Part shown: positions 7,876 to 44,157 of the stretch, piece after piece
How the letters are laid out: each line of letters opens with the position of its first letter
Numbering within the stretch: the first letter of the stretch is position 1
From: Octopus vulgaris
Taxonomy: Eukaryota
NCBI GenBank assembly: GCA_951406725.2
Contig: OX597816.1
Location: 52,142,001 to 52,206,000, forward strand
Length of the DNA stretch: 64,000 nt
Direction of reading: 5' to 3'
The notes under the pieces: model-generated
What the model was told of the DNA's origin: nothing
What the model saw: the letters and a program-made list of their open reading frames with translations, nothing else
Databases searched by the model: none
Translations under genes and position numbers: made by a program

Positions 7876-8265
7876 AACGTAAGGTGTACTAGCCATCTGA
7901 ATGTGGCTAGCCACTGGGGGTGGGGTGTTACTGATGCTTTTAGCCCCAGGCGATCAACGTCACCAGATGGACTTTAGACACTATCTCAGTGCCCTTGTGT
8001 TATTTGCAAAGGGAGGTCATCCTCTCTCGAAGACCTAGGTACTACATACGGACTATAGTTTCAAGGTAATTGCCTCTCGTCACCTCCCTTTGCAAATAAC
8101 ACAAGGGCACTGAGATAGTGTCTAAAGTCCATCTGGTGACGTTGATCGCCTGGGGTTAAAAGCATCAGTAACACCCCACCCCCAGTGGCTAGCCACATTC
8201 AGATGGCTAGTACACCTTACGTTGTCGAGCGGTTACTGTTTATATCTCGTTCAGAGATTTATTAT
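7876..8265. mobile_element. Fold-back element with 142-bp near-perfect inverted arms (7876-8017 / 8082-8223) between (TA)n tracts
   Basis: I saw one mismatch between the arms. The 64-nt spacer holds a truncated hammerhead motif. Confidence 0.9.
8047..8082 (-). ncRNA. 5'-truncated minimal type-I hammerhead ribozyme motif
   Basis: Minus strand: TGACGA-GAGG-caatta-CCTT-GAAA-CTATAG-TC-cgta. The first C of the core and the 5' strand of stem I are lost at the inversion junction. Confidence 0.7.
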
Positions 8266-8310
8266 ATATATATATATATATAGTTATATTAATAGTAATA
8301 ATAATAAAGA

Positions 8311-8717
8311 GTATGGAGACTTTTACATCCACAAAATTTATTTTATAGTTATATACACCATATTATAATGGCCTACATGTGTTTCCGCTGCGGCAACTGC
8401 TCACTGTTGCAAATGCAACCTTGCAATATTTTCTGTGCAGCTTCAACAGGAACCGTTCACTTGGTATTCCTCGAAGTAAACTGATTGAAGTAGATTTTTG
8501 TTAGTTAGTATTCCACTAACGAACTAACAAGAATTTACATCAATCAGTTCACTTCAAAGATGACCAAATGGACGGACACTGATGAAGCTGCACCAACAAT
8601 ATTGCAAGGTTGTATTTACTACAGTGAATAGCTGTTTCAGCAGGAACACGTGTAGACCATTATAATATGATGCATATAATTATAAAATAAATTTTGTGGA
8701 TGTACAAGTCTCCATAT
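8311..8717. mobile_element. Aged palindromic element (about 200-bp arms), each arm with a degenerate hammerhead motif
   Basis: The arms are diverged reverse complements around a short loop near 8507-8521. Minus arm 8370-8454: GGTTC-CTGTTGA-A-GCTGC..GCAGC-G-GAAA-CACATG-TA-GGCC. Plus arm 8579-8658: CTGATGA-AGCTGC..GCA-GGAA-CACGTG-TA-GACC. Confidence 0.8.
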
Positions 8718-9221
8718 TCCAGTTTACCTATATTGCAGCAAATGAACCAAATACAACTGTTCTCAAACGAGGATCGTCGTGGTTAGCCATTAACTGGAAC
8801 TTAACTGTAAGCTAATACAATATCCGCTCGGATAATATATCCCTCCAAACTCTTTTATATTTAGGTATATATAACTACGATAGGATTAGAATTTTGGAAG
8901 CAAAGGAGCGCGGTTAAATACCTTAAGATATTCACTCCGGCAACCTACTGTATCAAGCTGCCTACGATAATAGTTAAATATCTACTCTTGTCAGATGTGT
9001 GGTCAAAACTACCTGTTGCATTATACAGAGTTCTTGATAGCTTCTACATGACCGCTCAATCTATTAGAATCTTTCAAATCAGACCCAACAGATTTTTCTT
9101 TAAATTAGGGGAAGACATATTTGATAACGTAGTCTAAGATAAATTGTCTAAAAAGATGGACTGGTCATGGCTAGAATATCTTCCATCATTCGTCTGTTCC
9201 ATCAGAGCCGATCTAGGACTT

Positions 9222-9410
9222 TGTATTTCGTCTGCCGTTACGTTCTGAGTTCAAAATCCGCCGAGGTCCACTTTGCCTTTCATCCTTTCGGGGTCGATAA
9301 ATTAAGTACTAGTTACGCGCTGGGGTCGATGTAGTCAACTTAATCCCTTTGTCTGTACTTGTTTGCCCCCTCTATGTTTAGCCCCTTGTGGGCAATAAAA
9401 AAATAAGAAA
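9222..9410 (+). mobile_element. SINE family A, head-less copy with Tx1-like tail
   Basis: Contains a gagttcaaa B-box-like motif, the gcctttcatcctttcggggtcgataaattaagtac core and the gccccttgtgggcaataaa tail. Confidence 0.85.
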
Positions 9411-10499
9411 ATTATCGTCAATCTGAAGACCTGGTAACAAAGCGGATTCTTCTAAAGGCAGCCAAGGTCCAGGTTGTGGTGTAAAACTGCAGGGTGTATT
9501 AAGTCTAGAAACACAGAAATCACAGAACCAAAACGAAGACAGCTTGGTTCTCATCCGATGCTCTACTAATTACAATGACACACTGTTTTGGATTGGTGCT
9601 TTGTCTGTATATGATATCATCAGTAGGAAAAATAGTCACGAAAATACCGCGAGTGTAATATAAAACATTTTAATGCAGCCTTTACAGGTCTGAGTTATCT
9701 TTAGCTTTCAATTGTCAAAAGATGATAAAAGTGTAATATTGTAAAGTAACATACTGCAGTTAGTGAAATTTACTATGATAAAATACCAAGAAATAAAATG
9801 TATGTCTGATACATATTACTAAGCTTCTGCCAATGGTAAAATCGACTATTTTATATTCTATTGCAAAAATAATGTCCATGCTCGTTACTATCGATTTTAC
9901 CTCTAGTATTACAGGCAAAAGAGCGCAATAGAACACTGATATACAATGCATATATATTGTCGATTGTAATCAGCTCACTTCACTTACTTCAGAATATTTT
10001 GTTTAGCAGAATTGGTAGAGAGACTGGCAAATGACTGGCGATATTTTGGTTGGCATAGTATGTACCAGTTAAGTAATAGTAGTCTATTGAAGTGAATATT
10101 TTCATTTAGAAGTATTGCTTTGTTCATTTGTTGAAACTCATTATTTTAAGCCATGAAATTCCTCCTCTGCTATCCCTTTAAGATCTGAAACATTTGTTAC
10201 TAGAAAAAAAATGAATCTTGTAATTCCTATTACAGTCGAATCAGCTCAAGGCGATAGGTTTTCAATTTACTATACAGAGATCTTTGGTTTATACCCCGTC
10301 ATCGGGGTATAACTATGTCAATAAAGATGACACAAATAAGAGACTTATCTGTCGATGAGCCAATTCAGCTAATTGCAAATAGTTTAAACATCTCGAATAT
10401 GTACTATGTTGAGAGACAAGGAAGAAATCTGACTAACCGGATGCATGTCGGGGAAAAAAGTAAATCAAGGTTTTACTACCAGGTCTCACAATACAATAT

Positions 10500-11020
10500 C
10501 AGTTTCAAATTTTGGCACAAGGCCAGCAACATCGAGGAGGGGGCTAAGTCGATTACATCGACATCAGTGTTTAACTGGTACTTATTTTATCCATCTCGAA
10601 AGGATGAAAAGCAAAATCGACCCGGCGAAATTTGAAAGTAAAGACAGACGAGACGCCGCTAAGTAAATTTTCGCAGCGTGCTAACGATTCTTATTTCTTT
10701 ATTGCCCACAAGGGGCTAAATCGAGGGGACAAACAAGGACAGACAAAGGAATTAAGGCGATTACATCGACCCCAGTGCATAACTGGTACTTAATTTATTG
10801 ACCCCGGAAGGATGAAAGGCAAAGTCGACCTGTGCGGAATTTGAACTCAGAACGTAGCAGCAGACGAAATACCTATTTCTTTACTACCCACAAGGGGTTA
10901 AACACAGAGGAGACAAACAAGGACAGACCTCGGTAGAATCTGAACGCAGAACGTAGCGGCAGACGAAATATTGCTAAGCATTTCGCCCGGCGTGCTAACG
11001 TTTCTGCCAGCTCGCCGCCT
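10500..11020 (-). mobile_element. Cluster of tandem/nested SINE family A copies
   Basis: Repeated reverse complements of the family A head (ggcggcgagctggcagaaacgttagcacgccggg), core and tails. Confidence 0.85.
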
Positions 11021-11327
11021 TCAGGCTGCACAAAGTTGAGGAGACTTATTCTTCTCTCTCATTCCAAAGGATTGCAAACGTTTGAAACGTGACACTTGTT
11101 TTCGGTTTTAAGGAGAAAAAAACCCAAAGATTTCACTAATTGGATTATTCCTAATGGGTTATGTCAACGCGGATCATCTGTGTTATAAGTTCCATTGTTT
11201 GTACGACACCTTTTGTTTCTGTTTGAAACCTGAGCTTCTCGACTCTCATGGCTAATATTGCTTGTGAAATTTCACACTGTAACATATCTGTTCTGTGGGG
11301 GCTTTACTTGCCATTATATTCGCTTTA

Positions 11328-42610: not shown

Positions 42611-42810
42611 TTATGTTTGACTTTTGCTTTACATTTGTATAAGTTGACTGAAAATCTCACCCAGAGACCTCAAGAGACAAGTTGGAAGTTCATGTTGGTG
42701 TTATGCCTAGGGTACTATATATTTGGTTTTGTACATAGTGTTGTTCTAGAGAATGTTTAAGAAAACATAAGGAAATTATGTGGTTGTTTTAAAACTTGAG
42801 ATTACATAGA
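42611..42810 (-). mobile_element. Short 3' end of a (TAA)n-associated non-LTR element (R4/Dong-like)
   Basis: Homologous to 47965-48143 (+) and 53104-53270 (-). All three abut (TAA)n. Confidence 0.65.
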
Positions 42811-42916
42811 GTATTATAATTATTATTATTATTATTATTATTATTATTACTATTATTATTATTATTATTATTATTATTATTATTATTATTATTATCATTA
42901 TTATTATTATTAAATA

Positions 42917-43212
42917 ATAGAGCAGTACATGCTATCACACTGACACTGGGGCAAAATATACGAAACCCAGTATACCCATCATGACTAACCGTCTGATAAG
43001 GTTATACTAGACACATGCATCACAACCTTAAGTGCACGTGATGTTAATCTCATATAATAACTGAGCCCCCGTTAGAATTTTTCTCGGGTCGAGTAGCCCA
43101 TCCGCTCAAATGGTCCCTGAATAAGGGGTGGTAAGGATGTTGAACGAAACACTCACGTTTCTAAGGGTGAATTATTCAAGCCCCAAAGAATTCTTCTAAA
43201 CGCACGGCTATA
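42917..43212 (-). mobile_element. 5'-truncated copy of the ~550-bp (AAT)n-tailed element
   Basis: Homologous to 50036-50522 and 51527-52078. Confidence 0.8.
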
Positions 43213-43224
43213 CTTTTATACATA

Positions 43225-43731
43225 CATGCCTCCGTTAATCTTCCCACACGGTCTCACACTCAACACGGAGGCCTGCTTCAAGTGCCTGGAGGTAGTACTA
43301 CCTTGGGTCAAGTGAGTGGTTGCTGGAACCCTGCACCATGCCACAAGCAGGAAACCTCAATTTCTGCGACCACACTACCTTTAACATCTGACCATCTAGC
43401 TCCCCAGATTCCAAGCCCTTTCATTATTATGTGTGGGGCGCAGTTGAGCGAGAGTCCAACAAAACTCCTTGTAGCATCAAAAATAGACTTAAGGCAAGGA
43501 TTATGGCAGCATTCACCAACTTAAAGAAGGAGACCATCCAGAAAAGTTACAGGATATTCCGAAGTCGCCTGGAGGTTGTGGTTGAAACCAATGGCAATTT
43601 TCTTGAATAATTTAATCTTTAGTATTTCAAGATATTTTAATGTAATTTTGGTAAATATATATGTTAAAATGAGATGTCAGTGTTATTTTCATTTTTGCGT
43701 AATTTAGACGACAGTTTTTCCATCGCACTCC
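43225..43731 (+). mobile_element. 3' fragment of the same Tc1/mariner family as 33961-34820
   Basis: Reverse-complement similarity to 33961-34510, including the TIR region. Confidence 0.85.
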
Positions 43732-43798
43732 GTGTGCGTGTGTGTGTGTGGGTGTGTATATATATATATATATATATATATATATATATATATATATA

Positions 43799-44157
43799 TA
43801 CATGCGTATATTTAGGGATAACTACTAAGTGAATAACCAATATACTAGAAGAAGATCACGTACGATCTAACTACAAAGAAAATAATGTTCTCTAGAGAAA
43901 TTCAGCAGACAGCAGAACATAAGCGGGTAAGGCAGATGAAAATATATAAAAATCCAGAATTAATCGTTGACCGATTTCGTCTATTACCGATAATTACTTA
44001 CGTAATTTTTCGTCCGTAGACTCCTCAGTACGATCGTTCCGAATTGCGTGTTGAATTTCTGTAGAGAAGATTCTTTTCTTTGTAGTTAGATCGTATGTGA
44101 TCTTCTTCTAGCATATTGGCTATCCACTTAGTGGTTATCCCTAAATATACGGATGTA
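43799..44157. mobile_element. Fold-back element (arms about 43799-43906 / 44049-44157) with a hammerhead in the spacer
   Basis: Diverged inverted arms with (TA)n on the left. Confidence 0.85.
43963..44034 (-). ncRNA. Minimal type-I hammerhead ribozyme motif
   Basis: ATCGTA-CTGAGGA-GTCTA..AATTAC-GTAA-GTAATT..TAGAC-GAAA-TCGG-TC-AACGAT. Confidence 0.82.

Follow-up and report, generated by a model that had tools for sequence, protein, structure and literature searches.

What are the five short repeats with hammerhead-like cores in a 64,000-nt stretch of the Octopus vulgaris genome (contig OX597816.1, positions 52,142,001 to 52,206,000; hereafter the window), and which enzymes spread them? An earlier note, made from the letters of the window, had read them as several largely unrelated, non-autonomous families of ribozyme elements without open reading frames (ORFs), mobilised by Penelope-like elements (PLEs). 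The host genome comprises 2.8 Gb in 227 contigs and abounds in (TA)n and other microsatellites. After comparison of the five loci, here called families A to E, with further copies in this genome, we arrived at an answer in two parts, to which we assign a probability of roughly 0.8: A, C, D and E would be non-LTR (long terminal repeat) retrozymes with a predicted hammerhead, copied by PLE enzymes in trans, while B would be the 3′ end of a PLE of the Hydra clade.

The copies in the window are laid out as follows, with 'main end' and 'tail end' denoting the two fixed 3′ ends described further below.

7876..8082, minus: family A arm to the main 3′ end (monomer position 180), beside (TA)n, with a hammerhead remnant (locus L091)
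8046..8083, minus: family A hammerhead remnant, stem III CTATAG, family core the U3 variant TTGACGA
8082..8265, plus: family A inverted arm, monomer 44-222, to the tail end beside (TA)n
8287..8509, minus: family B arm to the main end, beside the TA run following A (locus L061)
8374-8449, minus: family B decayed hammerhead of the minus arm, CTGTTGA and CACATG
8519..8859, plus: family B inverted arm with tail
8579-8654, plus: family B decayed hammerhead of the plus arm, GGAA for GAAA, stem III CACGTG
21144..21585, minus: family C partial tandem of ~1.25 monomers (95-353, then 1-187)
21318-21347, minus: family C hammerhead, core intact, stem III CTAG, stem II with a basal C.A
24077..24372, no strand given: a sixth locus, absent from the earlier note, a C-related (81-86%) tail-out fold-back without a hammerhead
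38865..39476, minus: family D arm, monomer 69-445 then 1-234, to (TA)n
39087-39150, minus: family D intact hammerhead
39481..40104, plus: family D inverted arm, a partial tandem ending at monomer position 123 at (TA)n
39549-39600, plus: family D middle hammerhead, 3′ strand of stem II deleted
39930-39993, plus: family D intact hammerhead, predicted cut after 39993
43798..44039, minus: family E arm to the main end at (TA)22 (locus L121)
43969-44028, minus: family E hammerhead, core intact, stem III TCGG, first pair of stem I mismatched
44054..44271, plus: family E inverted arm with tail, to (TA)n, cut off before the hammerhead

The window contains eight hammerhead-like copies, namely one each in A, C and E, two in B and three in D. 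An initial descriptor requiring the 10.1-11.1 pair found no match there. A strict descriptor (core, stem II of at least 2 bp with an optional basal mismatch, perfect palindrome, stem I of at least 4 bp) matched twice, both times in family D (39087-39150 minus and 39930-39993 plus), and a relaxed version matched three times, adding E; in 100 block-wise dinucleotide shuffles of the window the mean number of matches was 0.01 and 0.06, respectively, with a maximum of 1 for either. The window copies of A, B and C matched neither descriptor. Coordinates, stem III segments (CTATAG, CACGTG, CTAG, CCGCGG and TCGG) and the fold-back or tandem layouts of the earlier note were all borne out. The motif CTGANGA that it placed at all five loci is absent from the minus arm of B (CTGTTGA) and from A, which reads GTGACGA because the inversion junction took out the 5′ strand of stem I together with position 3. 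A shared hammerhead core stands at the level of families for B, C, D and E, with A as a U3 variant, but only two of the eight window copies are intact; genuine remnants had been picked up and their integrity overstated. As to (TA)n flanks, both ends of A, D and E adjoin such runs; B does so at one end, its other end having TA-rich DNA beside it, and C not at all; as a background, 3.8% of the non-TA bases of the window lie within 15 nt of a (TA)4+ run. The sixth locus ends at the tail end (240) in one arm and at the main end (179) in the other, with TA runs on both sides and both arms cut off before the hammerhead. The B end at 8262-8290 lies in the TA run straight after the tail of A, and such elements therefore appear to pile up in one another's target runs.

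Are these remnants of ribozymes? A first-look search gave 392 candidates for D, 2,831 for C, 434 for B, 973 for A and 457 for E; per family, 40 candidates were scored and 30 fetched, so that the family counts below cover the copies most like those of the window. An intact core together with a perfect palindrome was present in 23 of 30 aligned segments of A (the core being TTGACGA in 24 of 30), in 29/31 of C, 8/32 of B and 10/35 of E, while the copies of D among the matches listed are nearly identical with their hammerhead intact. Stem I of the C copy in the window has only 2 bp, versus 6 bp in its family. The base of stem II is G.T in A, a C.A mismatch in 28/31 segments of C, an A.A mismatch in D (with only 2 bp above it), mismatched in B (A.G 16/32, A.A 12/32) and G-C in most segments of E. 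In E, positions free to vary do so: all four bases occur at position 7, while position 17 has C or A but no G. Elsewhere in all five families, copies can thus be read as type I hammerheads whose stem III is self-complementary, and we regard the motif as a predicted ribozyme.

Stem III also changes in a way that keeps it palindromic. In C it is CTAG in 25 and CATG in six of the 31 aligned segments, and genome-wide counts of exact 21-mers gave 209 for CTAG, 62 for CATG and one for the intermediate CAAG (CTTG lies outside the count). This swap was probably a single compensatory event, after which both palindromic forms spread. In a D-related copy, CCGCGG is replaced by a different palindrome, CTGATCAG. 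Predicted folding gave no stem III within a single copy, and the predicted energies of the stem III self-duplex, obtained for four of the families, were -14.1 kcal/mol for D, -10.3 for B, -8.3 for E and -4.8 for C. A study by Lunse et al. in 2017 reportedly dealt with hammerhead dimer cleavage. Self-pairing of stem III between copies, with no such fold inside a single one, agrees with the dimer-active hammerheads of PMC4209133. Further hammerhead-like motifs were seen in other repeats, at L226:4300-4560 (related to A and C), L227:1660, L243:389, L190, L235:3214 and L249:3073, with stem III palindromes among them of CCCGGG, CGATCG, GTAC and CATCGATG.

Apart from B, the families are built of units that also occur in tandem. 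Tandems of A give a unit of 348-376 nt (same-strand double hammerheads at 3/30 loci), and the unit of C is 353 nt long (tandem hammerheads at 1/30 loci, and also a trimer of 354-355-nt units). In D the unit is 445 nt, with at least two same-strand hammerheads at 19/30 loci and one ORF-free array of nine full units. For E, a landmark repeat found in two of four loci checked gives ~533-540 nt; this family shows partial tandems only, with two hammerheads in 0/28 loci. The longest ATG frame in the units of A, C and D is 25-57 aa, and their GC content is 37-44%. Folded as circles, the units of A and C are highly self-paired (z = -5.8 and -6.0 against shuffles). Judged from these features of the DNA, A, C, D and E are ORF-less units, met with as tandem, 5′-truncated and tail-out inverted copies, and hence non-LTR retrozymes. 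Copies of D are ~97-100% identical, which marks the family as apparently young. The supposed lack of relationship among families did not survive for A and C, which by sequence are related, sharing 65% identity over 102 nt (E = 6e-4) and similar predicted folds. A sister family of E (L243:1608-2115; L282-L285) has 3,801 candidates and its own hammerhead, with stem III CCAATGG in L243, and shows a wrap-around unit and inverted arms as in E.

Family B is of another kind. None of the long ORFs of the window lies at the five hammerhead loci (they are LINE (long interspersed nuclear element)-type reverse transcriptases (RTs) and a mariner transposase), as the earlier note had held, but elsewhere in the genome B is attached to PLE coding remnants. 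Several B copies run ~0.9 kb upstream into broken coding sequence, and when this coding stretch served as query, 19 of 30 loci had a B hammerhead downstream. The linked frames contain RT-like motifs, CxCx5C, CxxC and CxH, matching the description of the Hydra clade, and the Hydra-clade motifs (a C-terminal GIY-YIG-type endonuclease and no CCHH) were read in stop-free frames of L153, L154 and L162; the clade was assigned by motif reading rather than by a tree, and a Pfam search of six B and Neptune fragments gave no significant match. With nine natural Neptune and Hydra proteins as baits, PLE-protein matches were found at 11 of 29 B loci, at seven of which the endonuclease lies 490-1,070 nt upstream on the same strand. 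On this motif and linkage evidence, B reads as the hammerhead-bearing 3′ end of a decayed Hydra-clade PLE, not as an ORF-less retrozyme. It shares with the Hydra-clade PLEs of Craig et al. 2021 (PMC8557442), as described there, the C-terminal endonuclease, the CxCx5C linker, CxxC and CxH, a hammerhead at the 3′ end, insertion at (TA)n, an inverted 5′-truncated copy and a tail at one end; it differs in being decayed, with stops throughout, and in a tail of ~130-220 nt versus 30-40 bp. Other Hydra-type 3′ ends with hammerheads of their own (stem III CATATG or CATGTG) were noticed in L211, L212, L213, L218, L219, L187 and L200, and L211 has an asparagine-rich stretch ahead of the endonuclease, as in the Penelopes of Adineta.

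If B is a PLE end, all five families might be pseudo-LTRs (pLTRs) of 5′-truncated autonomous PLEs, and for A, C, D and E parents with ORFs would exist outside the sample. This account holds for B, and there is ample room for it: candidates in the genome number ~12,900 for Hydra-type endonucleases, mostly decayed, and ~14,000 for Neptune-like proteins, few of either having been inspected. It also agrees with PMC4209133, where minimal hammerheads are said to be mostly single motifs with a probable relation to truncated PLEs. Against it, copies that reach far upstream enter the end of a previous unit, which gives closed units of 348-540 nt, and D forms ORF-free arrays of up to nine full units. 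The same Neptune and Hydra baits, to which this comparison is confined, gave PLE-protein matches within 1.5 kb at 0/30 loci of A, 0/28 of E, 1/30 of C and 1/30 of D, compared with the 11/29 of B. The match of C begins inside its own unit, and that of D lies past the end of the element, ~0.9 kb downstream of the hammerhead. The linkage to GIY-YIG or RT ORFs that the earlier note had proposed to look for was thus present in B, and in the 118 loci of A, C, D and E no linked PLE protein was found with these baits. We consider that A, C, D and E are quite unlikely to be such truncated ends.

Several apparent links between these families and coding elements were examined and rejected. A C copy joined to a Hydra endonuclease in L037 begins inside its own unit and is a separate insertion. 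At L211, where D might have been the pLTR of a Hydra copy, D is a separate insertion between TA runs, and an 815-aa frame in L219 proved to be a LINE-type RT and not a PLE. A Hydra 3′ untranslated region in L243 resembled E (nhmmer E = 4e-19), but the stretch belongs to the abundant sister family; this E-like copy is 5′-truncated ~40 nt into the unit, and none of the other 39 top copies reaches the endonuclease.

What, then, mobilises the retrozymes? Evidence on this comes from their ends, whose positions were counted from the G of GAAA, with the predicted cut after position 10-12. The 3′ ends of A fell at 179-181 in 28/48 cases and at 202-229 in 14/48; those of C at 178-191 in 19/43 and at 210-246 in 19/43; those of D at 123 in 8/27 and at 234/241 in 15/27. 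E and B likewise end at two clusters. In all five families both fixed 3′ ends lie apart from the cleavage site, and from one to the other the unit of A, C and D simply runs on; 5′ ends are ragged. At least three TA units stood by the ends in 23/27 cases for D, 25/48 for A and 12/43 for C.

Copies also occur as tail-out inverted pairs, and these combine the two ends in a regular manner. A pair of one main and one tail end was seen in 8/10 cases for D (the other two not being classifiable), 12/13 for A, 8/10 for C, 5/11 for E and 4/7 for B. Over all families, 37 of 51 pairs were main plus tail, three tail plus tail and none main plus main, while 11 had an end outside the classes; in these counts three B loci with other geometry are excluded, and the limits of the end classes were set after the distributions were seen. 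Mismatches between the arms of a pair at subfamily-diagnostic columns, compared with copies from different loci, amounted to 0/26 vs 43% for D, 3/33 vs 24% for A, 16/90 vs 31% for C and 42/321 vs 35% for E, although over all columns the arms of C did not differ from copies of different loci (8.5% vs 8.3%). This agreement at diagnostic columns argues that the arms come from one source, though gene conversion could contribute. Snap-back copying was rejected as the origin of the inverted arms, as in L105 neither arm contains the other; classical twin priming on a single RNA was rejected as well, since the 5′ end of an arm is generally not at the 3′ end of its partner (judged by eye, uncounted).

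The pattern has close counterparts among PLEs. The anole Poseidon PLE (Frangieh et al. 2024, PMC11167929) is reported to nick AT-rich DNA on both strands and to extend both, with a tail defined by two internal RT start sites. Inverted copies with a tail at one of their ends have been described for Hydra-clade PLEs (PMC8557442) and, as a tail on one pLTR of the inverted two, for the Penelopes of Adineta (PMC3846280). Since two fixed ends and inverted arms match this published behaviour, the retrozymes carry a PLE signature, and from the comparison PLE enzymes are likely the mobilisers of A, C, D and E. The pairs differ from the anole experiments as reported, where strands extended in vitro were the same in start site, whereas the genomic pairs here join opposite sites and the elements are ORF-less. 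PLE mobilisation as proposed by the earlier note is upheld by the two-fixed-end signature, PLEs in the genome, inverted copies and TA targeting, but not the claim that all five families are non-autonomous, given the place of B as a Hydra PLE end.

A possible source of enzyme is at hand in a young Neptune-type PLE family, with at least 150 matches at 96-100% identity and open frames of up to 859 aa. Intact members (L268; also L263, L265, L270 and L272) carry a U3-A8 variant of the type I hammerhead (at ~2540-2590 in L268), with core TTGAAAA, a stem II of 2 bp, stem III CCGG and a stem I of 7 bp. It stands ~165 nt before the (TA)n end and would be missed by a CTGANGA descriptor; the element also has an optional tail of ~36 nt. 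In the window, a fragment at 35598-35757 resembles the C-terminus of a Neptune endonuclease (tblastn E = 1e-5).

We envisage that an RNA longer than one unit, whether a read-through multimer or a circle, would be bound by the PLE protein, whose endonuclease would nick both strands of AT-rich DNA. Reverse transcription would begin at one of two internal RNA sites, and if the two DNA strands primed at different sites, the expected outcome would be an inverted pair of which a single arm has a tail. Pairing of two hammerheads via the palindromic stem III might allow them to cleave the multimer to unit length, the resulting RNAs possibly being circularised thereafter. In a more speculative scheme, which we think rather doubtful though worth stating, two RNA units joined via the palindromic stem III would sit in a two-headed complex on a PLE protein dimer, the two heads priming opposite strands of (TA)n from different RT start sites. 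If this were true, dimerisation would be as good a reason as cutting for the hammerhead to be retained, and thousands of short insertions would form a ready data set for the mechanism of PLE integration.

A narrower version of our preferred explanation concerns the template: a monomer RNA cut by its hammerhead and ligated into a circle, read round repeatedly by the RT, as opposed to uncut multimers. Site-private variants of D occur in every unit of a site and in both orientations (T156C in 6/6 units at site C12, G362A in 4/4 at C3:261, T118C in 2/2 at C18 and A25T in 2/2 at C20), which favours one template unit read repeatedly. The units of A and C are strongly self-paired as predicted circles, and retrozyme circles of 350-400 nt have been demonstrated in mussels (PMC7229834). 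An uncut tandem transcript or later homogenisation would, however, yield an identical genomic picture, and according to PMC11167929 the anole PLE in vitro used mainly RNA that had not been processed as its template. Other variants in the D array at C12 are patchy (T333C 4/7, C220T 3/7, G131A 2/6), which a single monomer circle does not explain. Contigs from four sequencing runs join the D unit head to tail, one of 475 nt representing a closed 445-nt cycle; the latter was not used as evidence, since the RNA nature of its run was guessed and tandem DNA gives the same result. On balance we place the circular template at somewhat under even odds.

The patchy variants belong to a set of observations that weigh against our reading as a whole. 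The sample of family copies is biased, because top matches to the window copies were taken. The Rfam check suggested by the earlier note recovered no hammerhead: there were 0 matches at gathering score in 17 sources, and a search with a D copy gave no hammerhead at E<=10. A, C, D and E have no homology to the 3′ end of the active Neptune element, which was rejected as their parent on that ground, and a comparison with that one Neptune and with 70 Hydra 3′ regions yielded no pLTR homologous to them, setting aside the E-like match in L243 rejected above. For the D unit, the advantage of its predicted fold over shuffles is weak (z = -1.7). Predicted activity may be low, given the mismatch at the base of stem II in B, C and D, with just 2 bp above it in D, and given that in A U3 faces G8. 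Eight of nine predicted dimers of Xenopus retrozymes were reported uncleaved in vitro (bioRxiv 10.64898/2026.07.22.740005), and for the anole PLE hammerhead cleavage is described as dispensable in vitro, its mutants inserting normally and no RNA reads starting or ending at the cut site (PMC11167929).

Some of these points also suit a quite different view, namely that the motifs are products of chance or inert, the repeats being fold-backs of MITE (miniature inverted-repeat transposable element) or satellite type spread at the DNA level with the ribozyme under no selection. The defects in six of the eight window copies and the silence of Rfam would agree with this, as would conservation of core versus flank, at 0.94 vs 0.98 in A (junction-truncated copies included) and 0.93 vs 0.92 in B. 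Because Rfam misses the motifs, the case for ribozymes depends on the motif as seen in whole families and on the way it varies there. Yet intact copies exceed the shuffles, five families have reached the same core, and the swap in C preserves the palindrome with its intermediate missing; fixed 3′ and ragged 5′ ends fit reverse transcription and not cut-and-paste, and decay after insertion is expected of retroelement copies. We therefore hold chance or inert motifs to be very improbable and retain the reading of A, C, D and E as predicted retrozymes and of B as a PLE end.

The remainder of the window holds other repeats. A general repeat search was dominated by microsatellites, and a whole-window Rfam scan by E-value gave only microsatellite-driven matches among the matches listed (150 of 275). 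On the minus strand, 60015-63407 is a 1,130-aa open frame with AP (apurinic/apyrimidinic) endonuclease, RT and zinc-binding domains, a seemingly intact LINE which we take to be of Tx1/L1 type. Two broken LINE RT regions lie at 27458-28885 (plus) and 2137-4223 (minus), a mariner transposase fragment at 25481-26209 (plus), and a minisatellite of 47 repeats of a 34-nt unit, resembling part of a common dispersed repeat, at 4619-6215.

How much of this is new? Non-LTR retrozymes, their presence in a mollusc, the link to PLEs and the tail and inversion structure are already in print. The metazoan retrozymes of Cervera and de la Pena 2020 (PMC7229834), with mussel units of 350-390 bp, are described as tandem units that lack ORFs and have a type I hammerhead, a GC content below 50%, a highly self-paired predicted fold and species-specific sequence, as here, and the axolotl HHR_Amex2 is likewise mismatched at the base of stem II. 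D (445) and E (~535) lie beyond or at the edge of the ranges given there (150-450 bp, or 170-400 nt). Circles, which the octopus families may form, were demonstrated in that work. Prominent features here include tail-out inversions, two fixed ends and (TA)n targets, and the words 'inverted' and 'microsatellite' are absent from the main text of that paper. In PMC4209133 (Cervera and de la Pena 2014), type I motifs with a palindromic loop 3 and a dimer-type fold, many families per genome, opposite-strand pairs 100-700 bp apart and the U3-A8 variant are all reported; by comparison, the mismatch at 10.1/11.1 in B, C and D is two-sided and not a one-sided bulge, and A combines U3 with G8.

Li, Clavereau and Pollet (bioRxiv 10.64898/2026.07.22.740005) argue that retrozymes are non-autonomous PLE derivatives. 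Their families are similar in PLE dependence and in occurring as monomer, dimer and multimer copies (units of 51-972 bp), and their case, built on 31 vertebrates, three insects and one coral, is reported to rest on co-occurrence and pLTR homology. Here the PLE link is an insertion signature, the 3′ regions compared having yielded no pLTR that could be the parent of A, C, D or E. Hammerhead_1 matches have been reported in giant squid (PMC6962438). The main text of a 2026 octopus repeat annotation (PMC13282606) mentions no hammerhead, ribozyme or retrozyme, although its library may label the families otherwise, and no description of cephalopod retrozymes was found in the literature searched, subscription journals, Repbase and Dfam being outside the search. 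The five families may be undescribed as carriers of ribozymes.

The system is not of a new kind, and we regard the contribution to transposon biology as moderate. What it adds is a countable PLE insertion signature on ORF-less retrozymes. The enzyme that mobilises animal retrozymes was previously argued from co-occurrence and homology; that ORF-less retrozymes and a true PLE end in one genome share the signature of two start sites and inverted arms would lend this view more direct support. As D appears young and an intact Neptune-type PLE is present, a test of trans-mobilisation is feasible. The rule of one arm per start site can likewise be counted, and it bears on the second half of PLE integration.

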